Source: Squalus acanthias
Taxonomy: Eukaryota
Reading direction: 5' to 3'
DNA: 64,000 nt
Assembly (NCBI GenBank): GCA_030390025.1
Contig: CM059432.1
Coordinates: 26,228,001 to 26,292,000 of the forward strand
In this document: positions 3,648 through 64,000 of the stretch, piece by piece
How positions within the stretch are numbered: the first letter of the stretch is position 1
Layout: each line of letters opens with the position of its first letter
Program-made: the position numbers and the translations under genes
The notes under the pieces: generated by a model
What the model was told of the DNA's origin: nothing
Database searches by the model: none
The model's input: the letters and a program-made list of their open reading frames with translations, nothing else

Positions 3648-4207
3648 TAGCGCCTGATTTAATGCTCCAATCACCTCTAGGGGCAATAGAAGCCAAGTTT
3701 GCAGTCGGAGGCGATAATTAGCACCAGGCGCTAAACTTTGCGCCCAGCCGATAATTGCGATACCAAGTTTCTCCCCCTATATGTCTTACAAATGCAGTAA
3801 CCAACAGTTTCTGTGCTCTGAAACTAACCACCTGCAACATGGCATCCTTTACACCACTTCTGCAGCTGTCAGCTTATCAGATACATCAGAGCAGACTCAA
3901 CTCACGCCAGGGTGAGCTGGCGTGTTCCCCGAGCAGCGGGTAACCCGTGGGGAGCACGTAAAATTGGAAGAAAGCCTCAAAATACCATTAAATTGGCTGT
4001 TAACAACCCATTTAATGAGCTCAATTGTCTCCCCCACCGCTTGTTGTCGGGTCAGTTCTCAGTTGATAGACCCGACACCTGGGAGACTCGCGTGGAGGCG
4101 GGTTGACAGCGGGTTTCCTACCCACTGTCAATCTTTGTTATTTTGACAGCGGATCCACCTCCAAACCCGCACTCTGAGCGCCGGCAAAATTCAGCCCCGA
4201 GTGTCTA

Positions 4208-4305
4208 CAACAGCAAAATACTGCGGATGCTGGAAATCTAAATTAACAGAAAATGCTAGAAACACTCAGCAGGTCAGGTAGCATCTGTGGAGAGAGAAAC
4301 CGAGT
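4208..4305 (-). repeat. Penelope-type repeat fragment
   Basis: AAAATACTGCGGATGCTGGAAATC...CAGCAGGTCAGGTAGCATCTGTGGAGAGAG, the same family as 4770-5130, 11817-11928, 13200-13400 and 47720-47930. Confidence 0.55.
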
Positions 4306-4769
4306 GTCTAACTGGAGAAAATGGATTCCATAAAGTACCATTTTAAATATCTGTACCCCACATGGTAGATTCATAAAGCACGTCTTGCCAGTCTTTTTTT
4401 TCCCTGTTGCAAATTAGGTTTTTCAGCACAACAGGTTCGCAATTAACAGCTGGAATAAAATTCAAGTTGCAGACATGGTTACTCCTGAATGAAAAGGGTC
4501 ACTTAAAACAGTCAGATTTCCAAGTCAGGTGGCCAACATGGATGACAGTGAACACAATAAGAACTTGTTTGAAGTAAATCATACTCCTTGAAAATTGCCA
4601 CCGAGTTTTCTAATCTGCCAATTTGAAAAAAATATGTAAGAATTGCACAGGAGTACATATTTTCTCGCAATATTTTCTCCCCTCAAACCCTGAGGGCACT
4701 GACCGCTTACTTTGGTCCAGTTCTTGGCACACCAGTAACCCTGTAGTATATCAAAGTGCCAATTGTTTA

Positions 4770-5130
4770 TTTCAAATATAAACAGAAAATGCTGAATATA
4801 CTTAGCAGGCCAGGCAGCATCTGCAGAGAAGAAACACAAACACAGTTATCGTTTCAGGTCTGTGACCTTTCGTCAGAACTGGAAAATGTTACAGATGCAA
4901 CAGGTTTTAAGTACAGGTCCAGGGAAAGGGGGAGGAGAGGATAGAACTAAAGGAAGGTCTGTGATAGGGTGCCCCTCCCCTCTTTCCCTCCCTTAATATT
5001 TCCTGCAGACGAAAAGTCACAGCCCTGAAACGTTAACTGTTTCTCTCTCCACTGATGCTGCCTGGCCTACTGAGTATTTCCAGCATTTTCTGTTTATATT
5101 TCAGATTTCCAGCATCCGCAGTAATTTGCC
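4770..5130. mobile_element. Pair of oppositely oriented Penelope-type repeat fragments
   Basis: 4775-4881 and 5005-5105 are reverse complements of each other, and each carries a (degenerate) hammerhead-like core. Confidence 0.6.
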
Positions 5131-6340
5131 TTTTTAATATGTATTTCAATCTATTTACCATAAGGAGCATTACAGTCAAGACCAATCTTGTCCTCACCCA
5201 ACATCCCAAAGACATGCATTTTCAGCAGGGATTGCTGGTTAGTAATAAAGGTTTTACCGCTCCCTAAGTCAGGGCATTGGTGCTAATTGTAGCATCCACA
5301 ATACTACCTCAGCTGAAATGAGCTCCTCAGCAAGGATTACACCTGGGATGTCACTGTACTGCTCAGCTACTCAACTGGATGAATTCATTGAGTCATTGCT
5401 ATACACTAACATTTGCCTTTGTTTCACATGCGTACATTCTTTTTCCTCTATGCTGATAGGAACAGGAGTAGGGCATTTCACCAAGCTTGTTACATTGTTG
5501 AACAATAGGAGCTTCATTCTCAGTGATCATGCCAGCACTGATGAGCTGTGTGACATGGAACCTAAACTAATACTGATACCAACACCAGCATTACCAGTTT
5601 TTTTTTTCCAAATACATAAATGATTCAGAAATGCAAATCATTTCATTCGCTTTTCTTTCTCCCACCAAACTAGGAAACATTCCTTACGCATCACGTTGAT
5701 ACTTCAAATCAAAGAACTCCCATTAAGTTGCATTATTTCTGAAATTATTTACATGTATGGATTCAAGAGTTTAAGTGTACAGTAATTGAAAATAAGATCC
5801 TTACTGAAATAATCAATGTCATCTGCACAGATGTATTTATACTAAGGATTTAGGAAGTGGTAAAGTTGGAGAAAATTTTAAAAAAAACAAGGCATTGATC
5901 ACATGCATTGAAATCTAATTATAGAAACAAGTCAACCAGTGCCAGGGAAGGCATTACATTTGTACCTATTAGACCCACATTCTGAGCACGAACTTGGCTT
6001 TTCAGATAAATTGGTCATTGTTAGGTTGTGATGCAGATTTCACAATAAATTTCAGGGTGATATTTTACATTTACCTAGTACAGCAGCATTTGCTGCTCAA
6101 TTACCACAGTTTTGCATGAAAAGTCCCAGAAGCAGTGAAAATTCCCATTTATGAGTGAATCTGAACCACAACATACAACGACATCATTCCTGCACACTTC
6201 AATTGTGAGGGTCTATCTGGTTAGGATGCTGACCTAAAATAATTAGTTAGGTTACTAATTTAGCAACAATCTGTACAGATACTGATGAAAAAAAAATCAA
6301 CATTAAACAGTAGCAACAGAAGCCAAACAGAAAACTAATC

Positions 6341-8458
6341 ATAGAAGGTTACAGCACGGAAGGAGGCCATTTCGGCCCATCATGTCCGCACCGGCCAACA
6401 AAGAGCTATCCAGCCTAATCCCACTTCCCAGCTCTTGGTCCATAGCCCTGCAGGTTAGAGCATCCCAAGTGAACAGCCAAGTACTTTTTAAATGTGGTTA
6501 GGGTTCCTGCATCTACCACCCTTTCAGGCAGTGAGTTCCAGACCCCCACAACCCTCTGGATGAAGACATTTCCCCCTCAAATCCCCTCTAAACCTTCCAC
6601 CAATTACTTTAAATCTGTGCCCCCTGGTTTTTGATCCCTCTGCTAAGGGAATTAGGTCCTTTCTATCCACTTTATCTATGCCCCTCATAATTTTATACAC
6701 CTCAATAAGGTCTCCCCTCAGCCTTCTCTGTTCCAAGGAAAACAGACCCAGCCTATCCAGTCTTTCCTCGTAGCTAAGGTTCTCTACTCCCGGCAACATC
6801 CTTGTAAATCTCCTCTGTACCCTCTCTAGTGCAATCACATCTTTCCTGTAATGTGGTGACCAGAACTGCACGCAGTACTCTAGCTGAGGCCTAACTAGTG
6901 TTTTATACAGTTGAAGCATAACCCCGCTGCTCTTGTATTCTATGCCATGGCTAATAAAGGCAAGCATTCCGTATGCCTTCTTAACCACCTTATCTACCTG
7001 GCCTGCTACCTTCAGGGATCTGTGGACATGCACTCCAAGGTCCCTTTGTTCCTCTACACTACTCAGTGTCCTACCATTTAATGTGTATTCCCTTTCCTTG
7101 TTAGCCCGCCCCAAATGCATAACCTCACACTTCTCCGGATTGAATTCCATTTGCCACTGTTCTGCCCACCTGACCAATTTATTGACATCTTCCTGCAGTC
7201 TACAGCTTCCTTCTTCAGTATCAACCACATAGCCGATTTTAGTATCATCTGCAAACTTCTTAATCATACCCCCTATATTCAAGTCTAGATCATTGATATA
7301 TACCACAAAAAGCAAGGGACCTAGTACTGAGCCCTGCAGAACCCCACTGGAAACAGCCTTCCAGTCACAAAAACACCCATCAACCATTACCCTCTGCTTC
7401 CTGCCTCCGAGCCAGTTTTGAATCCGACTTGACACTTTGCCCTGGATCCCATGGGCTTTTAACTTCGTGACCAGTCTGCCATGTGGAACCTTATCAAAAG
7501 CCTTGCTAAAGTCCATATACACTACATCAAACGTACTACCCTCATCTACCCTCCTTGTTACCTCCTCAAAAAATTCAATCAAGTTTGTCAGACACGACCT
7601 TCCCTTAACAAATCCGTGCTGACTATCCTTGATTAATCCCGTGTCTTTCTAAATGAAGATTTATCCTGTCCTTCAGAATTCTTTCCAATAATTATCCCAC
7701 CACCGAGGTTAGGCTGACTGGCCTGTAATTACTCGGTCTATCCTTTTCTCCCTTTTTAAACAAGGGTACCACATTAGCAGTCCTCCAGCACCACACCTGA
7801 AGCCAGAGAGGATTGAAAAATGATGGTCAGGGCCTCTGCTATTTCCTCTTTTGCTTCACTTAACAGCCTGGGATACATTTCATCCGGGCCTGGGGATTTA
7901 TCCACTTTTAAAGCTGCTAAACCCCTTAATACTTCCTCTCTCACTATGTTTACTTCATCTAATATTTCACACTCCTCCCCCGATAGCAATGTCTGCTTCG
8001 CCCCTTTCCTTTGTGAAAACAGACGCAAAGTATTCATTAAGAACCCTACCAACGTCTCCCGCCTCCACACACAGATTACCCTCATGATCTCCAATAGGCC
8101 CTACCCTTTTTTTAGTTATCCTCTTACTGTTAATATATTTATAAAACATCTTTGGGTTTTCCTTGATTTTACTTGCCAAAAAATTTTCATGCTCTCTCTT
8201 TGCTTTCCTAATATCCTTTTTAATTGCACCCCTGCACTTTCTGTACTCCTCTAAAGATTCTGGAGTATTTAGCCCTCGGTATCTGTCATACGCCGCCCTT
8301 TTTTTCTTTATCCTATCCTGTATGTCTCTAGACATCCAGGGGGCTCTAGATTTGTTAGTCCCACCTTTTTTCTTTAAGGGCACATATTTGGTCTGAACCC
8401 TCCAGATCTCCTTGAATGCCTCCCACTGCTCTGACACTGATTTACCTTCAAGTACCTT
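6341..8458 (-). mobile_element. 5'-truncated CR1 LINE (ORF2 RT region, frameshifted)
   Basis: ORF 6524-7582 has RT motifs (DFSKAFDKV, QGSVLGP, FADD). Upstream ORF2 pieces lie at 7774-8437, and a 3' tail is present. CTAATC flanks both ends (6335-6340, 8459-8464). Confidence 0.92.
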
Positions 8459-9929
8459 CTAATCTGAAACACCATTTACAACATCCAATTATAAAAGGGT
8501 TCTTCGAAGAGTTACAGAACGAAGTTAATGAAGGGTCAATTGGGTGGACGATGGGATGAATTTCTATTGCTTTGGACTAGATATTTCATTGTCTAATTAT
8601 CTTGAAAGGCCCATCAGCATTCCATCAACAGAGCTCAAGTAAATATCAAAATTGAGCAATCAAGAGCAGATCTTTCTCCCCCTTAAATAAATCTGGTGAT
8701 TTGTCAGCAGAGAACAAGAGTTATCGGTGAACAGAAAAACAGTGCCAATTGGTGCAACCAGCAAAAATAAATAAAGTATAACTACATATATGAAAATCGA
8801 CTGAATAAATTCAGATAAAAACAGTAGGTTTGCACAGAGCTAGTAGGCAGCCATCCCAGAAATAATAGACATGTATATATGTTGTACTCAAAATCCATAT
8901 CTGCTACAGAATGCAATGTTCAACTCCTATATAGGTCCAGCACAATACCCTTCAGCAGAATGTATCCTAGCAATGCCAAGACTTCCAATAATGTAAGCAC
9001 TATATGGGCTTGTGTTTCTGACCACCTGGTAGTTCAAGACACTACTGGAATCTATGTCAGCAAGTATTCCAAGGGTCCCTACAGACACACTACTAATTGT
9101 GTGGATTTGACCCATTATAACAAGACCTGGAAACCTGCCGAATGTTGGAAATGCTGATCTTGTCACCACAAATTCTCTTGTCTATGATGTTTGCTGTGCT
9201 CTTCAGCACAGCTGATTCTGTAAGTGCATGACCTTTTCTTTATTGCAGGGCAGAATTCAAAAGGAGGAGGGGGGAAAGACTTCATTTCCTCAGCAAAATA
9301 CCAACAGGGCTCAATTACTGCACCTATCATTGGGTAAAAATGCCACATCTAAGTAGATTATAGCAGCTGGTACTTTTTTTCCTCGTTCTGTTCTTAAATG
9401 TCAACTATAGCAACTGCATATTGGGAGAGACACTTCTTACATATTAGTCTTAAATCTGCTTCTATATGCATTTTATTTGAATACACTTTTTAAAATGTGT
9501 ACTTAGGTTAATTTGAATAAATCTGTACAATGTATCAGTTTAGTTTTGCAATGAATATCTAGGTCAGGGTTAAACATTAAATGTTACCATCTATATACTA
9601 TTGTACATATATATCTATATTAAAAATCTACACAAACTTCCTGTCAAATTTTCCATCATAAATTCCAATGTCCACATTTCGAATGGAAACTGCTTATGTA
9701 AACTTGTCACGCTGTAATTACACCCTCCCACCAGTTAAAGTACTGCATTGTTACCACCGACAGGAGGGTGAAATTATAGTGTGACAAGTTCACATTTACA
9801 TTATAAATGTAGACATAGGAATTCAGAATGGATATATAAAAGTTAGAACAGAATACATGACCTTAAAATGGGGAATGAATTACATCTTCACAGCTTGGTC
9901 CAATTATCTCCTAGTCTTGGTTTAGTATA

Positions 9930-10577: not shown

Positions 10578-11817
10578 CTTTGAGGATGTAACTAGTGGAG
10601 TAGACAAAGGGGAACCAGTAGATGTGGTGTATCTGGATTTTCGGAAGGCCTTCGATAAGGTCCCACACAAGAGGTTGGTGAACAAAATTAGGGCACATGG
10701 AATGGGGGGTAATATACTAGCATGGATTGAGAATTGGTTAACAGACAGAAAACAAAGAGTAGGGATAAACGTGTCTTTTTCAGGATGGCAGGCTGTGACT
10801 AGTGGAGTACCGCAAGGATCGGTGCTTGGGCCCCAGCTATTCACAATCTATATCAATGATTTGGATGAGGGGACTAAATATAACATTTCCAAATTTGCTG
10901 ATGATACAAAGCTAGGTGGCAGTGTCAGTTGCGAAGAGGATGTGAAGAGGCTTCAAGGGGATCTCGACAGGCTCAGTGAGTGGGCGAGGACATGGCAGAT
11001 AGAATATAATGTGGATAAATGTGAAGTTATCCACTTTGGTAGAAAAAACAGAAAGGCAGAGTATTTCCTAAATGGTGAAAGACTGGGGAATGCAGATGCT
11101 CAAAGGGACCTGGGTGTCCTTGTACACGAGTCACTGAAAGTGAATGTGCAGGTGCAGCAAGCCATTAGGAAGACAAATGGTGTGCTGCCCTTCATTACAA
11201 GAGGATTTGAGTACAGGAGTAAAGAAGTCTTACTCCAATTATATAGGGCCTTGGTGAGACCACACCTGGAGTACGGTGTACAATTTTGGTCTCCTTACCT
11301 AAGGAAGGATATACTTGTCATAGAGGGTGTACAACAATGGTTCACGAGATTGATTCCTGGGATGGCGGGACTGTCATATGAGAAGAGATTGAGTAAACTA
11401 GCCCTGTATTCTCTTGAATTAAGAAGAAGAACAAGAGGGGATCTCATTGAAGCATACAAAATTATTACAGGGCTTGATAGGATGGATGCTGGGAGAATGT
11501 TTCTCTTAGCTGGGGAGTCTAGAACCAGGGGCCACAGCCTGAAGATAAAGGGTAGGCCATTCAGGACTCAGATGAGAAGAAATTTCTTCACAGAGGTTGG
11601 TGAATCTTTGGAATTCTCTACCCCAGAGGGTTGTGGAGGCTCAGTCATTGGGTATATTCAAAACAGAAGTCGATAGATTTCTGACTAGTAGGGGCATCAA
11701 GGGATATGGCGATAGGGCTGGTGAATGGAGTTGAGGCAGAAGATCAGCCATGATCTCATTGAATGGCGGAGCGGGCTCGAAGGGTCGAATGGCCTACTCC
11801 TTTTCTTACGTTCTTAT
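10578..11817 (+). mobile_element. 5'-truncated CR1 LINE (RT domain and 3' UTR)
   Basis: ORF 10456-11676 reads from FEDVTSGVDKGEPVDVVYLDFRKAFDKV through PQGSVLGP and FADD. The N-terminal ~40 aa are flanking read-through. Conserved 3' UTR stem-loop and tail. Confidence 0.92.
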
Positions 11818-11928
11818 GAAACGTTAACTCTATTTCTCGCTCCACGGATGCTGCCTGGCCTGCTGAGTGTTTCCAGCATTTTCTGTTGTTATTTCAGATT
11901 TGCAGCATCCGCAGTATTTTGCTATTGT
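11817..11928 (+). repeat. Penelope-type repeat fragment
   Basis: GAAACGTTAACTC...GCAGTATTTTGCTATTGTA, a near-exact reverse complement of 13198-13310. Confidence 0.6.
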
Positions 11929-12154
11929 AGAAGGTGGAGATATCCATTCCTACCTATCGCTACAGTTACTACATCTCCCCATAAAGACGAGTATGAAGTA
12001 TGGGGCTGATAAATGTAGAGTAAGTGAATTAGAGAGTTCAGGTAAAAGCATTAAAGCAGGTGGAGAAAGAAAGACATCTGGGCGTTCATAAGGTATCACA
12101 ATTGTGTGGGACAGGCTGGATGGACCAGAGGGTCTTTTCCTGCCCTTCATTGTC

Positions 12155-13192
12155 CGTATTTCTCATCTACATGTTGCCCCTTGGTGACATCATCCGAAAA
12201 CACAACGTCAGTTTCCACATGTACACTGACGACACCCAGCGCTACCTCACTACCTCTTCTCTCAAACCCTCCACGGTGTCTAAGTTGTCAGACTGCTTGT
12301 CCAACATACAGTTCTGGATGAGCAAACATTTTATCCAATTAAATATTGGGAAGACCGAAGCCATTGTTTTCAGTCCCCACCACAAACTCCGTTCCCTAGC
12401 CACTGACTCCATCCTTCGCCTTGACATCTGTCTGAGGCTGAACCGCACTGTTCAACCTTGGTGTCATATTTGACTCTGAAATGAGCTTCCGACCACATAT
12501 CCGCAGCATAACAAAGACTGCCTATTTCCAACTCCGTAACATCGCCAGTCTCCGCCCTTGCCTCAGCTCATCCGCTGCTGAAACCCTCATCCATGCCTTT
12601 GTTTCCTCTAGACTTGACTATTTCAATGCACTCTTGGCTGGCCTCCCACATTCCACCTACGTAAACTTGAGGTCATGCAAAACTTGGCTGCCCGTGTCCT
12701 AACTCGCACCAAGTCCCGTTCGCCCATCACCCATGCTCGCTGACCTACATTGGCTCCCGGTTAAGCAGCGCCTCGATTTCAAAATTCTCATCCTTGTTTT
12801 CAAATCCCTCCATGGCCTCGCCCCTTCCTATCTCTGTAATCTCCTTCAGCTCCACAACCACCCCCCTCCACCCCCGCCCCCCCTCACCTCCGAGATACCT
12901 GCGCTCCTCTAATTTTGCCCTCTTGAGCATCCCTGATTTTAATCGCTCAACCTTTGGTGGCTGTGCCTTCTGTTGCCCAGGCTCAAAACTCTGGAATTCC
13001 CTGCCTAAACCTGTCCGCCTCGCTACCTCTCTTTCCTCCTTTAAGACGCTCCTTAAAACCTACCTCTTTGACCAAGCTTATGGTCACCTGAGCTAATTTA
13101 TCCTTATGTGGATCGGTGTCAAATTTTTTGTCTTAAAATACTTCTGTGCAGCGCCTTGGGACGTTTTACTACATTAAAGGAGCTATATAAAT
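12155..13192 (+). mobile_element. L2-clade LINE 3' fragment
   Basis: Decayed RT/C-terminus: IYMLPLGDIIRKHNVSFHMYTDDTQ, LIHAFVSSRLDYFN, SFKTLLKTYLF. 3' end GCTATATAAATAC. Confidence 0.85.
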
Positions 13193-13197
13193 ACATA

Positions 13198-13410
13198 ATA
13201 CGATAGCAAAATACTGCGGATGCTGGAAATCTGAAATAACAACAGAAAACGTTGGAAAAACTCAGCAGGCCAGGCAGCATCCGTGGAGAGAGAAAGAGAG
13301 TTAACGTTTCAGGTCGATGACCTTTCGTCAGAACTGTGAAGAGCCGGAAATCAAATAGATTTAAGGCCAGAGTAAAGCTGGGAAAAGGGGGAGGGGATAA
13401 AAGAACAAAG
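13198..13410 (-). repeat. Penelope-type repeat fragment
   Basis: Same family as 4770-4970; includes the hammerhead motif. Confidence 0.6.
13298..13336 (-). ncRNA. Minimal type I hammerhead ribozyme motif
   Basis: Minus strand reads CAGUU-CUGACGA-A-AGGUC-AUC-GACCU-GAAA-CG-UU-AACU. This gives stem I AGUU/AACU, core CUGANGA, 5-bp stem II, GAAA, palindromic ACGU in place of stem III, and a UH cleavage site. Confidence 0.65.
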
Positions 13411-14059
13411 GGGGAGATGAAGAGACATTAAGAGACATTAAGAGATATGCAAGGCTAGAGGTGGTGTTAATGTGACAGATTAAGGCTGAAAGAAGTGTGA
13501 AATCCACTGGCAGAATGAAGGACAGCTGCCAGCTTCTAGGAGGAAAAAAAAAGGTGGGGGGGCAAATAAAATACATGTTGTTGTATGTTCGTAAATGATT
13601 TCTCCTCCCATGCCTGTCTATGTTGTGCTCCAGGGATCCATCTTTGCTTTCTTCAAATGCAAACTGCTACAGCTACAACATCAACAAGCATGGAATCAGC
13701 TTCCAAATGTCCACCACGGACACCCAACTCTACCGCTAACACCACCACTGACTGGAGGGCCATCACAGTACTATCCAGTATTAAGTCTTAAATTAAACTT
13801 CCTACAGCTCACTACTGGCGAAACTGAAACCATCTGTTCACCGCTCAACAGCACCGATGGATTTTTTGTTTCAACGCCATCAATTTCCCTGGCAGCTCAC
13901 TTGGGCTAAAACATCCTTCCTCATAATAGGTCTATGGCCAAAACCATTGGTGCAAATTTAGACTGGTAAGTTTGAGGCAGTAAGCATTACTGTCTCGTTT
14001 TATTGCCTCACCCATCCCCATCTCTGTAATGCCCTCCAGCCCTACAATCCCTCTGAGAA

Positions 14060-17038
14060 CTGTTGGGATGGGCACCAGCATATAGTAGAAAAGAGAAATA
14101 AGGTGTATAAAAGAGTAAATATGTTGGATAGTACTAGAGGTGGTAGTAGTACCATATTAGATAGGAGCAGACTAAAAGACTACGAAGCATTCTAAACCCA
14201 TTTTTGAATTTATGTACGTAAACGCACAAAGTGTGCTGAATAAGGTTGGTGAGCTACAAGCACAATTAGCCGTGTGGCAATATAATGTTGTGGCAATAAC
14301 GGAAACGTGGCTTAAAAACGGTGAGGACTGGGCACTTAATATTCAAGGGTACAAGGTGTTCAGAAAAGATAGGGAAGGAAAAAAGGGTGGTGGGGTGGCA
14401 GTGCTGATTAAGGAAGACATTGTACTGTTGGAAAGGGAGGATGTCCTTGAGAGGACAAGGACAGAATCCATTTGGTTAGAGTTGAGGAGCAAAAAGGGTA
14501 TGATCACGCTATTGGGGGTATTGTATAGGCCTCCAAATAGTGAGAGGGAGGTAGAGGAGCAAATCTGCAGGGAAATCACAGAGATATGCAAGAGCTTTAG
14601 AGTGGTGATATTGGGGGACTTTAATTACCCAAATATCGATTGGGATAATGCTCGAATAAAGGGAAAGGAGGGGGAGGAATTTCTGAAATGTGTTCAGGAG
14701 AATTTCCTTGACCAATATGTTCTTGGCCCAACTACGAAGGAGGCATTGCTGAATCTGGTGCTGGGGAATGAGGTGAGCCAGGTCGACCAAGTGTCTGTGG
14801 GAGAACACTTGGGTACGAGTGATCATCTTATCATAAGATTTAGATTAGCAATGGAGAGGAGCAAGGAACAATCTAGAATGGAACTTCTAAACTGGAATAG
14901 GGCTAACTTCAATGGGATGCGAAAGGATCTAGCCAGGGTAAAATGGAACCAAAGACTGACAGGAAAAACTGTAACGGAACAATGGGTGATCTTTAAGGAG
15001 GAGATGTTCCAAGTACAGGCTAGGTACATTCCAACAAGAGGGAAGGGTAAGAGAACAAAAATAAGGGCTCCTTGGATGACGAGGGAGATAGAGAAGATGA
15101 TGAAACAAAAAAAGAGGTTGTATGATGCACGTCAGGTGAATTCTTCAAAAGGAGAACCAGACCAAATACAATAAGTTGAGAGGGGATGTGAAGATGAAAA
15201 TAAGATTGGCAAAGAAAGAATATGAGAGTAGAATGGTGGTTAACATAAAAGGGAACCCAAAAATCTTCTACCGGCATGTAAACAGTAAGCGGGTAGTAAG
15301 AGGCGGGATGGGGCCTATTACAGACAACGAAGATGATAAATGTTTAGAAGCGCAGGGCAAGGATAGAATACTCAATGAGTACTTTGTATTTACTAAGAAG
15401 GTGGATGCTGACAAAATATCAGCAGAAGCAATGGAAGGGGTGAAAATTGATAGACAGGATGTACTAGAAAGGCTGGGTATGATTAGAGAGGACAAGTCGC
15501 CTGGTCCAGATGGCTTGCATCCCAGGTTGCTAAGGGAATTGGGGAAGGTGATAGCGGAAGGGCTTGCCATAATTTCCCAATCTTCCATAGATGTGGGCGA
15601 GGTGTCTGAGGATTGGAAAGTGGCAAATGTGACACCATTGTCCAAGAAAGTGTGTAAGGACAATCCTAGTAACTACAGGCCAGTCAGTTTAACATCAATG
15701 GTGGATAAAGTTTTAGAAACAATAATCAAGGAAAAAATTAACGGGCACTTGGAGAGGTTTAAGCTAATTAAGGAGAGCCAACATGGATTTGTAAAAGGCA
15801 GATCGTGTTTGATTAATCTAATTGAATTTTTTGTTGAAGTAACAGAGAAAATTCATGAAGGGAATGCAATGGATGTTGTCTACATGGATTTTCGGAAGGC
15901 ATTTGACAAAGTACCACGTAGAAGGCTGGTTAACAAAATTGAGGCTCATGGAATAGGTGGGTCAGTGGCAGCTTGGATAAGGAATTGGTTTAAGGACAGA
16001 AAACAGCGAGTTGTGGTAAATGGCTGTTTTTCAGACTGGAGGATGGTAGACAGTGGTGTTCCCCAAGGGTCAGTGCTGGGGCCACTGCTTTTTTTGATAT
16101 ATATATAAAAAAATGACCTGGATATTGGAATACAGAGTAGAATTTCTAAATTTGCCGATGACACCAAACTTGGGGGTGTGGCAAACAGTGATGATGATAC
16201 CAATCGACTGCAACAGGACATAGAAAGGCTAGCAGAATGGGCAGACAAGTGGCAGATGGAATTTAATAGAGAGAAGTGAGGTGATGCATTTTGGCAGAAG
16301 GAACAGGGAGAGGCAATATACACTTAATGGCACAGTTTTAAAGAGTGTGCAGGGACAGAGGCACCTGGGAGTTAATGTGCGTAGGTCCCTGAAGGTGGCG
16401 GGACATATTGAGAGAGTGGTTAACAAAGCATATGGGATCTTGAGCTTCATAAATAGAGGTATTGAGTACAAAAGTAGAGAAGTTATGCTGAACCTTTATA
16501 AAGCACTGGTTAGGCCACAACTGGAGTATTGCGTCCAGTTCTGGTCACCACACTTTAGGAAGGATGTGAAGGCCCTTGAGAGGGTGCAGAGGAGATTTAC
16601 CAGAATGGTTCCGGGGATGGGGGATCTTAGCTACAAGGACGGGCTGGAGAAGCTGGATTTGTTTTCATTAGAGCAAAGGAGGTTGAGGGGTGATTTGAAA
16701 GAGGTGTACAAGATTATGATGGGTTTGGATAGGCTAGATGGGGAAAGGCTGTTCCCACTAGTTGATGGTACAAGGACTAGGGGACACAGATTTAAGGTTT
16801 GGGCAAGAGATACAGGGGGGGATGTGAGAAAAAACTTTTTTACGCACCGAGTGGTGATGACCTGGAATTCGTTGCCGACGGAAGTGGGGGAAGGGGAGAC
16901 TGGATCGGCACTTGAGGGAAATAAACTTGCAGGGTTAAGGGGATAGAGCGGGGAAATGGGACTGACTGGATTGCTCTAAAGAGAGCCGGCGGGACTCGAT
17001 GGGCCAAATGGCCACCTTCTGTGTTGTTATGACTCTCT
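14060..17038 (+). mobile_element. CR1 LINE with nearly complete but broken ORF2
   Basis: ORFs 14212-15174 (endonuclease: YVNAQS, ITETWL, GGGVA, LGDFN, SDH), 15176-16108 (RT) and 16281-16946 (C-terminus). Stops and frameshifts present; TATGACTC tail. Confidence 0.93.
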
Positions 17039-18561: not shown

Positions 18562-19640
18562 CCGCTCCCTCATCGTTACCTCTGGTGTCCCCCAAGGATC
18601 TATCCTTGGCCCCCCTCCCACTTCTCATCCACATGTAGCCCCTTGGCTACATCATCCAAAAATACAGCGTCAGTTTCCACATGTACACCCTGCTGACGAC
18701 ACCCAGCTCTACCTCACCATCACTTTGCTCAACCCTTCCACGGTCTCTAAATTGTCTGACTGCAGGTCCGACATCCAGTTCTGGATGAGCAAAAATGTTC
18801 TCCAATTAAATATTGGGAAGACCAAAGCCATTGTTTTCGGTCCCCGCCACAAACTCCATTCCCTAGCCACTGACTCCATCCCTCTCCCTAACATCTGTCT
18901 GAGGCTGAACCACACTGTTCGCAACCTTGGTGTCATATTTGACCCTGAAATGAGCTTCCGACCACATATCTGCAGCATAACTAAGAATGCCTATTTTCAC
19001 CTCTGTAACATCGCCCGTCTCCCCCCTTGTCTCAGCTCATCCGCTGGTGAAACCCTCATCCATGCCTTTGTTACCTCTAGACTTGACTATTCCAACACAC
19101 TCCTGGCTGGCCTCCCACATTCTACCCTACATAAACTTGAGGTGATCCAAAACTCGGCTGCCCGTGTCCTAACTCGCACCAAGTCCCTGTTCACCCATCA
19201 CCCCTGTGCTCGCTGACCTACATTGGCTCCCGGTTAAGCAACGCCCCGATTTCAAAATTCTCATCCCTCCATGGCCTCGCCCTCCCTATCTCTGTAATCT
19301 CCTTCAGCCCCACAACCCCCCCCCCCCCCCAGAGACATCTGTGCTCCTCTAATTCTGGCCTCTTGATCATCCCTGATTATAATCGCTCAACCATTGGTGG
19401 CCGTTGCCTAGTCCCTAAGCTCTGGAATTCCCTGCCTAAACCTGTCCGCCTCGCTACCTCTCCTTCCTCCTTTAAGACGCTCCTTAAAACCTACCTCTTT
19501 GACCAAGCTTTTGGTCACCTGCCCTAATTTCTCCTTATGTGGCTCGGTGTCAAATTATTTGTCTTTTAATACTCCTGTGAAGCGCCTTGGGACGTTTTAC
19601 TACGTTAAAGGCGCTATATAAATACAAGTTGTTGTTGTTG
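18562..19640 (+). mobile_element. L2-clade LINE 3' fragment
   Basis: GVPQGSILGP-like start; ORF 18725-19216 (LQLNIGKT, RNLGVIFD, LIHAFVTSRLDYSN); (GTT)n tail; homologous to 12155-13192. Confidence 0.88.
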
Positions 19641-38003: not shown

Positions 38004-38094
38004 CTGCTGTCACCAGCCTGGTGGCATGGACGAAAGAAGGGTCCAGACTGTCCTTCTCGGCCATCAGCTCGGGCAAGTATTTCTCATCCTCCAT
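38004..38094 (-). CDS. KHDRBS2: First coding exon of a KH-domain/STAR RNA-binding protein (KHDRBS2/SLM-1-like; paralog assignment not certain)
   Basis: ATG at 38094-38092 gives [30 protein letters not shown], the QUA1 dimerisation motif of Sam68/SLM proteins. The exon has 91 coding nt and ends in a phase-1 donor (G|GTAGA at 38004/38003). The start-to-KYLPEL spacing and FVHA best match KHDRBS2. No exon 2 was recognised in 1-38000. Confidence 0.85.
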
Positions 38095-38339: not shown

Positions 38340-38780
38340 TCCTTTTCTTTCTCTTCTTCCCCCCCTTCAGGCGACAACGCAGATTATAAAGAGAGAGAAA
38401 GAAATCAAAAATAACCGTCCGCTGCCTCCCCGCGACCCCGCCCCCCTCGCACGCCAATTGGCTGAGCCCGCGTCACTCAAAAGCGTGTCTTTATTGCTAT
38501 TGGACAGCATTTGTCCGTCAATCAAACGCGCTTGACCTATCGTCTCACGGCTTTATTCCTCGTTTTCAAACGGCCTGCCTTGCCCGGCCAAGCTTTTGTT
38601 GTGGCAAGTGTTGTCCCGCCCCCTCCTCCTCCTGATCTGTCAATCATTCTTCTCGCCCCAGCCCCTTACTCCCCGCCGCCACTCTCCGCATCCTTTCGTG
38701 AGTGGGTTGGCGGCACGTCAATCAAAGCCGTCGCGCCGCTCCCTCAATGCCCTGGACCCATCTGCTTCCGCAAGGTAAAA
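38340..38780 (-). promoter_or_regulatory. GC/CpG-rich promoter of the KHDRBS gene
   Basis: CpG-rich patch in otherwise AT-rich DNA directly upstream of exon 1. It has GC boxes (CCCCGCCCC ~38436, CCCGCCCC ~38615), CCAAT boxes (CCAATTGG 38454-38461; ATTGG 38499-38503), TGATTGAC motifs and a TATA-like TTTATAA on the minus strand at ~38385-38391. Confidence 0.75.
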
Positions 38781-47306: not shown

Positions 47307-47719
47307 AGGGACTTTAGATTTACAGAAATAGCTGAAGAAGCTTTATTTCTGATTCTGTAGATGTGATTCTCAATCTCCAAACACCTGAATTCAATGTGAA
47401 AAAAGCACATCAGCTCCGTACCCCACCTGAGACATCAACCAGTCAAACCAAGGATTCATCCTAACCGACTGAAGCTGCTAGGAATACACCAGCAATATTT
47501 TCTTCAATAAGAGTTTCTAGAGTTTTGTTTTTTCAGAGACTGTTTCTCTGGCCAGTTTCATTACAAGATAGCTCGCCCACCCTGGGCTACTTCACATAGT
47601 TGGTGAGAGCTTAACCACTTCTTCCCGATCCCTACTGGTGCCTCAGGTCATTCATGACTGAAACTAAAGCAGGAAACCCTTTCAAGTAGTGATCGAAGGA
47701 AAGCACAGTGTGCAGTCCA

Positions 47720-47935
47720 ATATAGAAACAGAAAATGCTGGAAGCACTCAGCAGGCCAGGCAGCACCCATGGAGAAAGAAACAGAGTCAACGCCTCAGGT
47801 CGACGACCCCGCGTCAGAACTGGAAAAAGCCATGTAACAGATTTTAAGCCGGTGCAGAGGCAGGGAAAGGGGCAAGGGGAGGAAAGAACGAAAGGGAAGG
47901 TCTGTGATAGGGTGGAAGACAGGAGTGATTGAATG
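47720..47935 (-). repeat. Penelope-type repeat fragment with degenerate hammerhead core
   Basis: Homologous to 4770-4970; the core reads CUGACGC...GAGGCG (mutated). Confidence 0.55.
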
Positions 47936-57079: not shown

Positions 57080-58723
57080 GCTGGAACAGACTGTGCTGGA
57101 GATAATTGGAGGGGCCATCACTGAGGCCGTGGCGTGCGGCGAGGTTGAAAGCGCTGCTGAAGACGGTATACTCATACCTAGTCCTGCTTCACACATCCCA
57201 CTTCCCCCTCATCGCACAATCTCTTCTCACTTCCAAGCTGCTGAGGGTGTAAGCTTGCACATCTTGCATCCCCCCCCCACCGCCGCCCTCACTACCACCC
57301 GACCCTTGTGCCTTTCTCATTTCAGATACCCAAGAACTGCTAGCAGCCCAGCCAGTCCCCGACCAAAATGGCACTGCACCTAGAAACATAGAAAAGAAAA
57401 TAGGAGCAGAAGTAGGCCATTTGGCCCTTCGACCCTGCTCCACCATTCAATATGATCATGGCTGATCCTCTATCTCAATACCCTATTCCCACTCTCTCCC
57501 CATACCCCTTGATGCCTTTTGTGTCTAGAAATCTATCTATCTCCTTCTTAAATATATTCAGTGACTTGGCCTCCACAGCCTTCTGTGGTAGAGAATTTCA
57601 CAGGTTCACCACCCTCTGAGTGAAGAAATTTCTCCTCATCTCAGTCCTAAATGTCCTACCCCGTATCCTGAGACTGTGACCCCTCGTTCTAGACCCCCCA
57701 GCCAGGGGAAACATCCTCCCTGCATCCAGTCTGTCTAGCCCTGTCAGAATTTTATACGTTTCAAACTTTAGAGGGTAATATAGAGGCAGGATCTGCATGT
57801 GGTGAGTCACCAGGCACTGTGGGCTGCAGCCAGGCCAGGGGGAAAGGGTAGCTTGGGTGCCAGCTCCCCGGAGGGCGAGTTCGCACATGAGTTCTGCTGC
57901 ACTGGACTCGAATGAGGACTTCGATAGGGTGGCCTTCAGAACAAGGATGATAGGTATGCACACAGAAAAGCTTGGTGCAATGGCAGGTCTACTAGAGAAC
58001 CTCTTGTTAGTGTCAAGGATCATGGAGGTGTCCGGCTCCAACATTGCATGGGGCTTTGCGTGGAGCTTGGAGCCCATGATTTCCAGGGTGGAAGTGATGG
58101 GCAACTCCTTTAGAGCAATTGTGGACCCAACCATGATGCTGGGTGTGATGGGTGATGTCGCAGCTTCCATTGCAGCACAAGCGTAGGCGAGCCAACATCT
58201 GAATGCTGCCGCGAAAGCTCAGACTGCTCTCATGCAGTGGAAGGTTACTGCCACGCAAGTTCAGACTGATGCCATCATGGCTAGGTTTACGAGTGTGGAA
58301 AGGGGGTTGCAGGATCTCTCAGCAGTCCAGCAATCTGTCCTTCACCAGATGGCTAGGAATACTGAGGCGCCGGCCCGGAGGAGTGGCAGTGGCTCCATGG
58401 AGCAAGAAGCTGCTGTCCTTTCTCAGGATGACAGCATTCATCCTCCCACCACTGCCACTCCACCAGTACCCTTGTTGCTGCCTGTCAGCCAGCCAGCCCA
58501 GATTGCTGCTGCCCATGGCGAGGTGGTGCAGTCTACAGCCGGGCCTTCTCGGCCCAGAGCTGCTCGAGGTCGCCCTGCAAGGCCATCTGCAGTCTCCCCC
58601 ATGGAAAGTCAGCAGCCTTCCACCAGCCATGCTGCAACCATGGTGGTAGCACTGCATAGGAGCACTAGAATATGCAAAGGAGCACGAAAGACAGACACTA
58701 AGGGAATACACAAGGGTGGTTAG
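57080..58723 (+). pseudogene. Harbinger second-ORF (Myb/SANT partner protein) C-terminal remnant, apparently spliced
   Basis: LEQTVLEIIGGAITEAVACGEVESAAED, then donor-like GACG|GTATAC (~57164), a pyrimidine-rich intron, and acceptor TTCTCATTTCAG (~57325). ORFs 57857-58186 and 58232-58723 (coiled-coil-like, ending HRSTRICKG) converge on the transposase. Confidence 0.6.
57381..57763 (-). mobile_element. CR1 (HER1-like) 3' fragment inserted in the Harbinger element
   Basis: ETYKILTGLDRLDAGRMFP...RRNFFTQRVVNL plus 3' UTR and tail. Confidence 0.9.
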
Positions 58724-58889
58724 TTGACCTTGTTATGTAGTATTGGATTGAATCATTTATAAATTATGTTTGAAATGTTTGTTTTGTGGTGGCTTTCATT
58801 TCAGCTTTGTGCCCAAAAGAATGCGGTGATGTTCCGTGACCGAGGGATGGTAAGGTGGGAAGATTTGAGCAACGGGGATCAGGGGTTTC

Positions 58890-59991
58890 ATTCATTGGAA
58901 CCGAAGTCTGATGAAGCACTCACGGACAGCCCATCCAAAACAGGGATTTGCTGCCTGCCTCCTCCCTTCCTGCTCCTCCTCCTCCTCCTCCTGCTCCTCC
59001 TCCTCCTCCTCCTGCTCCTCCTCCTCCTCCTCCTCCTCCTCAGGTGGTCGCAGAACCCGAGGTGGCAAGGACTATGTCCTCATGATGGCCAAGTTGTGCA
59101 GGATGCAGCAGATCACCACGAAATGGGACACCCACTCCGGCGTGTACTGGAGAGCTCCTCCCAAGTGGTCAAGGCAGCAGAACAGTTGCTTTAGCACCTT
59201 GATGGGAGGTTAGTCATCAGCCAGGTGTACAGCAGATAGCCCTTGTCTCTGAGCAGCCACCCTCGGGTTCAACACGGTGGCTGAAAGATTGCTAGCATGA
59301 AGGCATCATGACTGCTGCCAGGATACCGAGCATTCACCATCATGATATGCTGGGTGTGGTCGGCACACCAACTGCACGTTAAGTGAGTGGTAGCCTTTGC
59401 GGTTGCGGTACATCTCAGGATTGATATGCGGCGCCCGCAAAGCCACGTGTGTGCAGTCGAAGGCGCCGTGCACCTTGTGGAAGCCCAATATCCTGGCAAA
59501 GCCACATGCACACTCCTCCTGCTTCTCTCTGTTCAGAGAGAAGACAATGAAGTCCCTTCTTCTGGAGTACTGAGCCTCTGAAACCTCCCTGATGCAGCGA
59601 TGGACGGAAAACTGGTAGATGTTAACTATGTTACCTGCTCCAGACTGGAAGGATCTGGTGGCGAAAAGATTCAGGGCCATGGTCACCTTGAGGGCCACTG
59701 GCAGCGCCGTCGTCGCCCTGCTCCGAGGCTGCAGGTCTGGTTCCAAGAGGTGGCAGAGTTCTGTGACCATCTCCTTGGTGAAGCAGTGCCGCCGAACACA
59801 CTGCTCCTGCCTTAGGTGCAGGTAGGAGACGTGCTCTCGGAAGACCCTTGGTGGGTAAGGCCTCCTGCTGAGAGCCCTCCTGCCCCTCCTCCTCCTCCTC
59901 CCTCTGCGAGCAGCTTGTCCTCTTCTTTGCTGCCTCTGCTCCATCTCCCTGTCATGCTGCAGTGCGGGGGGACTGCAAGTAGAGCCCCCAT
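58890..59991 (-). pseudogene. Harbinger/HARBI1-type DDE transposase pseudogene
   Basis: ATG at 59991 (MGALLAV). Motifs RPYPPRVFRE, ALPVALKVTMALNLFAT, VHGAFDCTHV, YRNRKGYHSLNVQLVC, then after a frameshift ARYPGSSHDAF, WLLRDKGY, LKQLFCCLD and CCILHNLAI, with an acidic C-terminus. Several frameshifts and a deletion near the catalytic E. Confidence 0.9.
58958..59041. repeat. (CCT)n triplet repeat, encoding poly-Glu in the transposase C-terminus
   Basis: Direct reading; GAG codons on the minus strand with occasional CAG. Confidence 0.9.
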
Positions 59992-60487
59992 GACTGGGAG
60001 CAAGTGGTCTGAGCAGAGCCCTTGAATTCAGAAACAAGGCCTTCTCCACTTGCAGCACCACTCCCTGTCACCTCACCAACTTGAAATAACTCTAGAAAGC
60101 TCCAATCAGTTCCACAAACTTACACAGAGCCAGTAGAAATCAAAAAGCACATTACCTGAAAGTTGTTGATGATCCCTTTAAATATCGCTGGTGGGGTTCC
60201 CTTGTGCAGCTGATTGCACTTTCAGCTGTGCGTGCATTTGGAGAGGGCGTGCAGTCGAGCGGCGACGCCCAAAAAAGCAGGTCGTGCATCAAATCAGCAT
60301 TGCACGTTGATTGACTTCACGATCTACCTCATTTGCATTCTTCTGCCAAATGCAGGCAACAGCCGCGCTACCGACCTGCCCAAGATGGCGACTGCCGCTG
60401 CCCATGTGGCCGGAAGTGAGGCAGCCGCCATTTTTCTGCCGAAACCAGCCTTAAATGCTGGCGCTAAGAGGGGGAATTTCACGGCCT

Positions 60488-60690
60488 TAGAATCATAGAA
60501 TGATAGAATGATACAGCACAGAAGGAGGCCATTCAACCCATCGTGCCTGTGCCGACGCTTTGGTAGAACTGTCCAATTAGTCCCACTCCCCTGCTCTTGC
60601 CCCTTAGCCCTGTATTTTTTCCCCCTTAAAGTCTTTTTCCTTTCCTTCAATTCTCTTTTGAGTGTTACTATTGAGTCTTCTTCAGTCATC
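60488..60690 (-). mobile_element. CR1 3' tail fragment
   Basis: TAGAATCATAGAATGATAGAATGATACAGCACAGAAGGAGGCCATT. Confidence 0.75.
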
Positions 60691-60735
60691 ATACTCAGGC
60701 ATCATATTTTCTCTATGCATCACACTGCACTTGAT

Positions 60736-61499
60736 GGCCCAGAAATTCGCCTCTCCGGCTTGCCGCGGGGGTAAGGATCGCGCGCGCTCTTACCTACCGT
60801 GCCTGCCGTTGTGTTTCGGGCCCACGGGAACTTCAGCTCCTGGTCCTGCTCCAAGTGCCGGCGCGCAGTGCTTGCATGTCCCAGGGGCGTAGTTAGTGCG
60901 ATGCATCCCCTGGGATCACGTGGGCCATGGAGAGCCAATGGCAGCAGACCATCTTTCATTCATAGATTTGACAGGAGACCTGTCAAATCTGTGAATTGAA
61001 ATCGGCCCCAAAAGAACAGCTAAACTTAAAATAATTTTTTTTTAAAACCCATCACATTTATAAAATAACTATAGTTAAATAAATTAACCACTTTAAACAA
61101 AAATTTTAATTTTTGAAAAAATTAAAATACTTTTTAAAAGTGATAAAAATAAACTTACCTTTCTTTAAAGTATCTAAAAAAGATAAACCTGTTGAAAAAA
61201 ATTTAAATTATACTTAATTAACCACTTACCTTGTTGAAAACGGGTCTTGCGCCTCCTTTTTAATAGCGTAGTTTCTTCAATACTTACCCTCGCGTAGAAA
61301 CCTGAAAAAAAATCTAAGTTTGCTGCGTGCACGCAGCCTCTAGCGCGCACGCGGTTCACCTAGGAACCGCTACCTTCACCATACCGGAAGTTCCGGTTTC
61401 CCGCGCATGCGCAGTGCATGCAGGAAACCGGCACTTCAGGACGCATTACGGGTGAGTACGGACTGTGTATTCACCCGGGAAGGGCCGAATTTTTGGCCC
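60736..61499. mobile_element. Harbinger-type MITE
   Basis: TIRs GGCCCAGAAATTCG / CGAATTTTTGGCCC; exact TSD GAT (60733-60735, 61500-61502); GC-rich arms with an AT-rich centre. Confidence 0.8.
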
Positions 61500-61831
61500 G
61501 ATATGTTATGCAGCTGCATAACCCCAGCTATATTTCTTTCACTGGTTTTTTTTATCATCGTTTTCCATTAAACAGTAGCAATTTCTGGAAAAACTGTACT
61601 ATTATTCAGGTTTGGAGGAAGATTCTGATTAAAAGTTTTGGTTTAAGTATATATATTTTTAAGTAGTGCTTTTTGGTAATATAATTCATTTGTTTTCCAA
61701 GAACCAATTTATAAACGCTTACTTTACCATCGCTGAGAAAATCTCATAACTTCTTTACAAATTCTTTGAGTGAAGATGTGTATCTTTCCTGAATATCAAC
61801 AACCCAGCAGTCCCTTGCCTCGTAACACTGT

Positions 61832-64000
61832 GGGTTCGATTTTGCCAGGCCCGAGGAGGCGGGATTGGAGGCGTGTGAGTTGGCGGGCGGGCCCTATCCC
61901 GCCTCCGAGCAATTTACCCAAAAGTGTGTTTTCTGACCCCCTTTCCATCCCGCCTCCAAGAGGCGGGATAGGCCCTTAAGGCCCTTAACAACCACTTAAT
62001 AGCCTCTATAATCCCATTTTGAGAGGGCTTTCCGATTTTTAGTCATTCCCCCCATCCCTCATGCCTCCTCTGGAACACACCAGGTAATGCTGGCGGCCTC
62101 ACAAGTGGATTGCTTACAAACAGCTGCAGCTCCACCATTACAAAGGAGTTTTCACCAATGATAATTTGCAGGTGGCAGAACTTTGTTGTTTCAGGTCTGG
62201 GGGAACTTTTAGCAGGCATACTCAGTGTTGTGGAAGTTTGGAGCCTGGGAAACCCCTCTCCCCACCTTGACTAAGCGCTTCCTCAACTGAGGCATATACC
62301 AGAAGCATGGCAACCATTTAATTCCTTTCCTCCTGGACATCAGATTTGGATGAAGACCAGCCGCGGCAGCAGCAGAACCATGGGCAACAGCAGCACCAAC
62401 AGCAGGAGCATCAACAGGAGCGCCAAGCTGCTAGTCACCCACCTGAAGATGCACAGGCCAGAAGTCGCCAGTGTGCGACCATATGGCTGGCCGAGATGCA
62501 AGGGACACACTCATGTTGGTCACATTTGCTTAGCCTGTACAATCAAACACTTTTGCCTCACACCTTCTTACCAGAGCATCGACAATGGACAAGAACCTGC
62601 GGATTCCTATCACTCTGACCACCATACTGACAATTGCAAGTCGCTCTAAGCCCTCATTGTGGAAGTCCCATTTGCGAAATGACACAGGCCACAACTTCAA
62701 CAGTTTGCCATCAGAATTTTTTATCACAACAAGCAACTGGTGGCATTTCAAAAATAAGCACAACATAACACCCAAGTGACTACCCTTGTGACTACTTGTG
62801 CATTATCTTTCTCTTACGCGTGCTCCTACGTGGTGCTTCCCCTGTGGCTTCAGCAGATGTGGAGGCCCCTTGCTCACTTTCTTGCTGCTCCTGCCTCGAC
62901 ACCTTTGGCGGCTGTCCTCTGGGGTTGCGAACCTGTGAGGGCTCGGCAACAGTCTGCTGCTCCTGCGGCTGTGCAGGGGATGAGACGCCCATCTCAGTTG
63001 GGTGAGGACTCTGGTGGGGCTCTGACCGAGGGCTTTGCAGTGGCATGGTTGTTTGAGCGCTTGGAGAGGAGCCCCCACTTCCTTGTTGTCTGCCACCAAC
63101 ATCCCTCTCATGGGTCAGCCCCACTTCAGAGCTAGCAAGTGGCTTGACAGCACCTTGCTGCACTTCAGGGGGGCCATGAGGAACCGTTTCTGCACTGGAA
63201 GTCCTACTCCAGAGGACTTCCATGAAGGTCTGGTTTCTATGCTCAGTAGCTGACCATCGCTCCTCAAGAGATGCCAGTCTATTCTGAACAATGACCATGT
63301 TTTCTACACTCTGGCAACTTAGCTCCTCCATGGCCGTAGCCATCCTCTCCTCTACTGTAGCCATCCTTTCCACGGAGGTTGTCATCCTTTCCGTGGTGAT
63401 GCGTTCATGCGCGAATGCCTCCACAAAGGCTCTGCTCATGTTCGCGATGGACTCCTCCATTCGCTCGACACTCGCAGCGACCCTGGAGACAAAACCTGCC
63501 AGAGACACCTGCACCTCTTCCTGGAGTTCCAGCACCGTTCTCATTCTGGATGGACCCAGAGGCACAAGGTCGACATGCAGCTGAGCCGAGCTGGCAGAGT
63601 CCTGCACCCTCTGACGAGGACTCTCCACTGCTGTCCCTGTCTCCACCATCTGCTAATGCTCACTTGTGAGCTGTGATACACCAGGTGCCAACACTACTCT
63701 ATCTCGTGAAGGTCCCACCGAGGTGTGAGTGTCTGCGCTGGTGCTGGATGCGCTGATTTCTGCTGAGGCTGCGCCCTCAGAGGTTGCAGCTTCCTCTGAG
63801 GAGTCTGGAAGCTCAGGCTCTTCCTCCTGGACAGTGGGGACAGGGGCTTTCGATGGTCCTGTGGGGGAGTAAAGGAAAGAGTTAGAGATGTGAGGTCAAG
63901 GTTACATGAACATTGAATAGTGCAGATGATCATAAGTCAATCTGTTAGAGCATCAGATTCATTATCAGTGACTCATGCAATGTCAATGAGAGAGATGCCA
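61832..64000. mobile_element. Harbinger element running off the window end, with partner-ORF remnant on the minus strand
   Basis: TIR-like GGGTTCGATTTTGCC at 61832 and GGAGGCGGG subterminal motifs. Gln-rich transposase-like N-terminal remnant at ~62308-62480 (+). Minus-strand exon from acceptor CCCCACAG|G (63858) through ORF 62792-63649, ending PRRSTRKRK. Confidence 0.7.

Follow-up and report, generated by a model that had tools for sequence, protein, structure and literature searches.

Introduction

Can a hammerhead ribozyme motif that lies in sense orientation within the first intron of a splicing-regulator gene cut the pre-mRNA of its host? The question is raised by a stretch of 64,000 nucleotides of the Squalus acanthias genome (C8:26228001-26292000, hereafter “the window”), whose minus strand carries such a motif within the gene KHDRBS3. 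An initial annotation of these letters had suggested that the nascent intron may contain a self-cleaving RNA. Our analysis leads to another reading, which we hold with high confidence: the motif is the minimal hammerhead of the end repeat (pLTR) of a young Penelope-like element (PLE), present here as a lone truncated insertion in KHDRBS3 intron 1 and likely inactive in the pre-mRNA. PLE hammerheads as such are already published (PMC4209133), and the present motif is a genuine, well-formed addition to that class. Neither the family nor the locus is described in the literature covered on hammerheads or Penelope elements in sharks or chondrichthyans and on a KHDRBS3 ribozyme, most subscription journals and Repbase lying outside that scope. 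Supplement file 2 of PMC4209133 holds no “shark” or “Callorhinchus” entry.

The host gene

The first coding exon of the host gene is found within the window:

38004..38094, minus strand: KHDRBS3 coding exon 1, with the start of the Qua1 domain (Pfam Qua1, E 1.4e-13; 30 codons)

The second Qua1 exon (C8:26170646-26170723) is outside the window, which places the hammerhead in intron 1 and in sense, exactly as had been annotated for a KHDRBS gene; the intron runs to C8:~26170720, a length of ~95 kb. The gene is KHDRBS3: its KH exon (exon 3, C8:26147328-26147438) is identical to human KHDRBS3 in PDB 5EL3 at 37/37 residues. Two further paralogs are present in the genome, on C9 and C3267, and by elimination the C9 paralog would be KHDRBS2. 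Upstream of exon 1, a GC-rich segment (38400-38700) with several CCAAT-like boxes is probably the promoter.

Architecture of the motif

The motif itself occupies 37 positions of the window:

13299..13335, minus strand: minimal type I hammerhead with a 4-bp stem I, a CUGACGA core, a bulged A, a 5-bp stem II, GAAA, and a palindromic ACGU replacing helix III

Read along the minus strand, the 5′ strand of stem I (AGUU, 13335-13332) is followed by the CUGACGA core (13331-13325), by an A bulged between A9 and position 10.1 (13324), and by stem II (AGGUC/GACCU, 13323-13311) with its loop AUC. Then come GAAA (13310-13307), CG, U16.1 (13304), U17 (13303) and the 3′ strand of stem I (AACU, 13302-13299), with cleavage predicted at 13303/13302. 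These letters agree with the annotated hammerhead, from the complete set of core nucleotides and the lengths of stems I and II to the ACGU palindrome and the cut. Compared with the minimal hammerheads (min-HHRs) of PLEs, the motif has the CUGANGA...GAAA...UH core with stems I and II, the extra nucleotide between A9 and 10.1 (A13324), and the palindromic 15.2-16.2 (ACGU) in place of helix III. The G10.1-C11.1 pair that is typical of PLE min-HHRs, although outside the descriptor, is absent; the pair is A-U in the window copy, a point missed in the initial annotation. Scanning with hammerhead models, as proposed there, gave a divided answer: a core pattern has a single match in the window, where shuffled sequences average 0.01 (1 of 100 shuffles having a match), but an Rfam search of 11000-16000 at E<=10 returned no hammerhead family, only two unrelated weak matches.

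A solo copy of a Penelope-like end repeat

The motif lies in a short insertion whose ends and target site can be delimited:

13195..13571, minus strand: solo 5′-truncated pLTR (3′ end) of a young Penelope-like element, 377 bp
13195..13280, minus strand: first ~86 nt of the element ORF, with ATG at 13280-13278, in frame with the 955-aa ORF of full-length copies
13569..13576, minus strand: upstream copy of the apparent target-site duplication ATGTATTT, an identical 8-mer at both ends
13189..13196, minus strand: downstream copy of the apparent target-site duplication ATGTATTT
12160..13195, no strand given: older LINE fragment whose A/T-rich tail is the PLE insertion site, with an 86% paralog at 18622-19626

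The older LINE fragment is presumably of L2/CR1 type. Over 368 bp the insertion is 99.5% identical to the terminal part of L036, a copy that has the ORF, and in an alignment of 24 copies (the window copy and 23 others) all have one common 3′ end followed by unrelated 3′ flanks. On the other side the window copy stops at 13571, whereas other aligned copies extend further 5′. The apparent duplication measures 8 bp, of which 3 bp are left when the element is credited with the bases that its ends have in common with the duplication.

Apart from this insertion, five fragments of the pLTR repeat are scattered through the window:

4774..4881, minus strand: sense pLTR fragment, older, likewise of this family and in intron 1, 8.46 kb downstream of the window copy; stem II and the core are unbroken, but position 16.1 is A
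11817..11929, plus strand: antisense pLTR fragment, truncated within the hammerhead
5008..5146, plus strand: antisense degenerate pLTR fragment
4206..4305, minus strand: sense pLTR fragment without hammerhead
47716..47895, minus strand: degenerate pLTR fragment upstream of KHDRBS3, core broken

The complete sense motifs nearest to the window copy are 20.0 and 24.4 kb downstream in the same intron, which holds three in all. Tandem hammerhead units, the hallmark of non-LTR retrozymes, were sought at 13299-13335: there is no array, and the copy has no tandem partner.

Two polypyrimidine tracts ending in AG or GG are found 3′ of the hammerhead (13300-13281 and 13250-13231, minus strand), and they could serve as cryptic 3′ splice sites in sense intronic copies. 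As a candidate acceptor of a PLE intron these stretches were rejected, both of them varying between AG and GG among copies. Elsewhere in the window, 57598-63652 contains long ORF fragments (e.g. 59306-60067, minus strand) and neighbouring low-complexity ORFs, and a similar element flanks L034; we take the ORF fragments to resemble a Harbinger-type transposase.

The age of the insertion can be judged from contigs of other organisms. In X17 and X19, two organisms from one study, a low-depth contig matches the unique flank 13576-13900 (325 nt; 12 substitutions, one 10-nt gap), then runs straight into the opposite flank. Since the contig continues directly from flank to flank, the orthologous site is empty in both, these being the two informative runs of four (X21 and X22 have no flank coverage). 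The insertion in KHDRBS3 intron 1 is by this comparison recent, the empty sites being those of other organisms and polymorphism within the species being a separate matter. Conservation at the orthologous site, as a domesticated ribozyme would have it, is absent in X17 and X19.

A large family of EN+ elements

A search of the genome for this repeat gave 674 candidates, 40 of which were scored, and all 40 are 93-100% identical. Two loci, L031 (C18:26938000-26947999) and L034 (C23:42197500-42207499), hold a 3200-bp unit organized as pLTR-ORF-pLTR with a hammerhead in both pLTRs, which bears out the earlier suggestion of a Penelope-type minimal type I hammerhead with palindromic helix III. In both elements the stop-to-stop frame is 1004 aa long, or 955 aa from the first in-frame ATG. 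The two pLTRs of L031 are identical over 477 bp, and L031 and L034, both full-length and with intact ORFs, show 99.8% identity, so that the family is probably still active. Inverted 5′ copies are found in L032 and L037, among nine extended loci. At L002, a PLE copy and its inverted partner lie inside a ~32-bp minisatellite array.

What kind of PLE is this? The element ORF matches RVT_1 (E 2.6e-5) and GIY-YIG (E 6.6e-4) in Pfam, both below the curated cut-offs, and contains DKG, YIDD, a CX4CX2C linker (residues 821-829) and a CxxC within the GIY-YIG endonuclease. A single ORF with reverse transcriptase (RT) and C-terminal GIY-YIG is the mark of EN+ PLEs, and their other features are present too: pLTRs, partial tandems, 5′ truncation and inverted copies. 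The CX2-5CxxC linker between RT and EN that distinguishes the Neptune/Nematis type is also found. By its motifs alone, under the definitions of PMC8557442, the element is thus assigned as an EN+ Penelope-like element of Neptune/Nematis type.

The hammerhead is extremely abundant: a 33-nt pattern has 23,880 exact matches in the genome (a reversed-pattern control has 0), and four looser patterns differing at pair 10.1-11.1 together have 51,142. Its position relative to the ORF deserves attention: the predicted cut precedes the first in-frame ATG, which opens the 955-aa ORF, by only 22 nt (L031:2976-2999; window 13302-13278, minus strand). The three letters of this ATG are retained, in turn, by 62, 66 and 61 copies among 66.

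Apparent constraint on the hammerhead fold

Across the four patterns, pair 10.1-11.1 is A-U in 32,008 matches, G·U in 18,375, G-C in 543 and A·C in 216, these being counts of copies and not of independent events. The A·C mismatch is rarer than the 478 expected under independence (odds ratio 4.4). By hand count among the matches listed, 49/100 of the G-C matches have one loop that occurs in 0-4/100 of each other list; this signature indicates that G-C includes a subfamily of its own, and A·C, having no loop signature, looks like decay. The pair is G-C, G·U or A-U in expanding subfamilies of very different size, and the youngest copies seen are A-U.

Variants were surveyed in family copies anchored 3′ of the hammerhead, from which 23/89 were dropped because the hammerhead was not covered at >=60% identity. 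In the 66 of 89 copies retained, some rows of which are misaligned truncations, frequent variants are confined to sites that tolerate change: N7, 10.1 and loop II, and less often 15.2 and H17. Frequent two-sided changes of stem I are absent from these 66 copies, which contain one single-copy double change.

A second PLE family is present in the same genes. It has different stems I and II, an AGCU palindrome and a variable loop II, and four of its motifs are located just 3′ of ORF pieces with 28-41% protein identity to the first family. Between the two families compensatory changes are seen in stems I, II and III, and the fold is kept. One hammerhead of this second family lies at C8:26158430 (minus strand), with many other sites in the C9 and C7 gene bodies, often as inverted pairs. 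Covariation in stems I and II across copies had been put forward as a check on the motif. Between families it is found in all three stems. Within the family it is seen at one pair, and a frequent two-sided change of stem I is lacking there. Structure-preserving variation among families thus exists, in few independent events and with two-sided changes mostly between families. Overall, the fold appears, from these patterns of variation, to be selected in the element.

Does the solo copy cut KHDRBS3 pre-mRNA?

Published work gives a lone min-HHR little chance. Monomers are inactive, dimers and trimers weakly active (PMC4209133, in the part available); the Anolis PLE hammerhead cleaves only with the element protein, and in the accessible part of the same report no RNA-seq reads end at the cut site (PMC11167929). 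In our predictions, the window copy folds with a minimum free energy of -9.2 kcal/mol, its core paired at 0.6-0.99 probability, against -6.5 for the hammerhead monomer. Likewise, the active dimer is predicted at -10.9 kcal/mol and two inactive monomers at -18.4. Nearest-neighbour energies ignore the contacts of the hammerhead core, which makes this folding result a weak one. The stability of the single-strand fold is nothing unusual when compared with shuffles (z -0.28).

If sense copies were cut, and cutting were costly, they should be depleted in transcribed strands. Orientation was counted over 1.62 Mb in three gene bodies, namely KHDRBS3 (220 kb), its C9 paralog (400 of 446 kb) and a 1-Mb glypican gene on C7. 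Complete motifs are sense in 25/48 cases and antisense in 23 (p 0.89; one shuffled control gave 0 matches), the descriptor missing a sense copy of intron 2 in which the cut site is followed by an additional A. When five inverted pairs are removed by eye, 20 sense and 18 antisense motifs remain. Family copies of all kinds are sense in 44/89 cases, and the core is intact in 18/34 sense vs 15/32 antisense copies (Fisher p 0.81). As a control, CR1 copies in the three genes are sense in 108/228 cases. Taken separately, KHDRBS3 has 4 complete sense motifs vs 1 antisense, and 15 complete motifs lie in sense in the pre-mRNA of the glypican gene. In these three genes sense copies are thus unlikely to be strongly costly; a mild cost is compatible with the counts, since inverted pLTR pairs contribute to both strands.

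Among 22 runs, all consisting of contigs, X1 and X5, which are RNA only by guess, have contigs over the repeat portion, and none of those listed bridges the junctions of this copy; being assembled sequences, they cannot show RNA ends. Given the published inactivity of monomers, the core-sequestered predicted fold and the lack of strand bias, cutting of the host transcript is unlikely, and the solo copy likely does not cleave host RNA to a meaningful extent. The suggestion of self-cleavage in the nascent intron, at any meaningful level, was therefore not upheld, the motif being a lone pLTR without tandem partner, sense copies being as frequent as antisense ones, monomers being inactive in published tests and the orthologous site being empty. 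The three complete sense motifs of intron 1 do make long-range dimers formally possible.

Proposed history and alternative explanations

By analogy with published PLE work, the endonuclease would have nicked the A/T-rich site, and reverse transcription would have started inside the ORF, ~86 nt from its beginning, and broken off after 377 bp. If the hammerhead works at all, it would do so in RNA of the element: in tandem transcripts, two copies at a distance of 3.2 kb could build helix III through ACGU, or the element protein might chaperone the fold. The solo copy in its 95-kb intron would adopt the core-sequestered fold and be spliced out uncut. The sense orientation of the window copy is a coin toss.

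Several other explanations have to be weighed against this one. Even in the active element the hammerhead might be a relic that has lost its function and persists only through its linkage to the pLTR. The dominance of forms without G10.1-C11.1 and the absence of frequent two-sided stem I changes within the family fit such a relic, as does the finding that hammerhead mutants had no effect on insertion in vitro (PMC11167929, available part). It is nevertheless made unlikely by the restriction of high-frequency variants to tolerant sites, by the shortage of A·C pairs, and by the second, distantly related family, which keeps the fold through compensatory changes in three stems, even if these represent few independent events. 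Quite improbable, in our estimate, is a solo copy that cuts KHDRBS3 pre-mRNA slowly or only under certain conditions, when paired with a second sense copy of the intron or aided by the element protein, and so slightly lowers or modulates output. Such cleavage could draw on an intact set of core nucleotides, on the two complete sense motifs 20.0 and 24.4 kb away together with the intact catalytic half 8.46 kb downstream, and on protein that intact family ORFs could make available, protein-assisted cutting being published for the Anolis PLE (PMC11167929, available part). Against it are the absence of sense depletion in three genes and the weakness of dimers even in adjacent constructs (PMC4209133, available part). 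Moreover, only ~86 nt of ORF are kept here, compared with the first 172 nt that the Anolis RNA needed in the insertion assay, a requirement that may carry over to this family.

That the motif is a domesticated intronic ribozyme, selected by the host to regulate KHDRBS3 splicing or expression in the manner of CPEB3 or HH9/HH10, has next to no probability. Its sense orientation in a splicing-regulator gene and its intact core could be read that way, but it is 99.5% identical to unrelated copies, one of >50,000, without helix III and without any locus-specific change, and the empty orthologous site in two organisms largely refutes such an origin. A last proposal, a long shot in our view, concerns the element: cutting of read-through transcripts 22 nt before the ATG could free a capless mRNA and initiate its translation, and the protein might also activate solo copies in trans. 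Translation start through cleavage by a viral type I hammerhead has been described (PMC13725137, available part). If the proposal were true, tens of thousands of sense intronic copies, the one in KHDRBS3 included, would be conditional pre-mRNA cutters when the element is expressed. The reading that we prefer is still that of a lone, probably inactive remnant of a PLE end repeat.

Comparison with known systems

As a host regulatory element, the motif is recent transposon debris and of no importance. The family is of modest value for understanding what PLE hammerheads do, with the intact elements L031 and L034, >51,000 motif copies, a G-C/G·U/A-U series and a cut just upstream of the start codon, and the balance of sense and antisense copies over three long genes is an indirect in vivo sign that lone min-HHRs do not harm pre-mRNAs. 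Among host intronic ribozymes, HH9 and HH10 are conserved, single-locus and active as monomers. The CPEB3 ribozyme (PMC10274809) is likewise conserved, single-locus and monomer-active; like it, the window copy is a motif of self-cleaving type lying in sense in an intron, but in contrast to CPEB3 and HH9/HH10 it is a lineage-specific repeat copy that has no helix III. The non-LTR retrozymes (bioRxiv 10.64898/2026.07.22.740005, available part) share a type I hammerhead of PLE pLTR origin, but theirs stands in tandem non-coding arrays whereas here it belongs to a solo truncation of an autonomous element.

The resemblance is closest to PLE systems, each compared through the portions available of its report. 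With the published PLE min-HHRs (PMC4209133) the motif shares type I topology, the missing helix III, the palindromic 15.2-16.2, the extra nucleotide between A9 and 10.1 and the 4-bp stem I, and at the level of the element the hammerhead in both pLTRs, the thousands of solo copies and the nearby inverted pairs. Pair 10.1-11.1 is A-U in this family (G·U in older copies) and a highly conserved G-C in theirs, and the >51,000 copies found here compare with 4,000-9,000 in coelacanth and Xenopus. With EN+ PLEs of Neptune/Nematis type (PMC8557442) the element has in common the single ORF with RT and C-terminal GIY-YIG, DKG, CxxC inside GIY-YIG and the linker Zn-finger motif, as well as partial tandems, 5′ truncation and inverted 5′ copies. 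Finally, PAc, a Poseidon element of Anolis (PMC11167929), also has its hammerhead at the pLTR-ORF junction, insertions ending shortly inside the ORF and an A/T-rich target. The insertion reaches ~86 nt into the ORF here and +111 to +118 in PAc; the PAc cut falls 26 nt downstream of the start codon, whereas that of the present family falls 22 nt upstream of the first in-frame ATG; and Poseidon lacks the linker Zn-finger that this ORF possesses.
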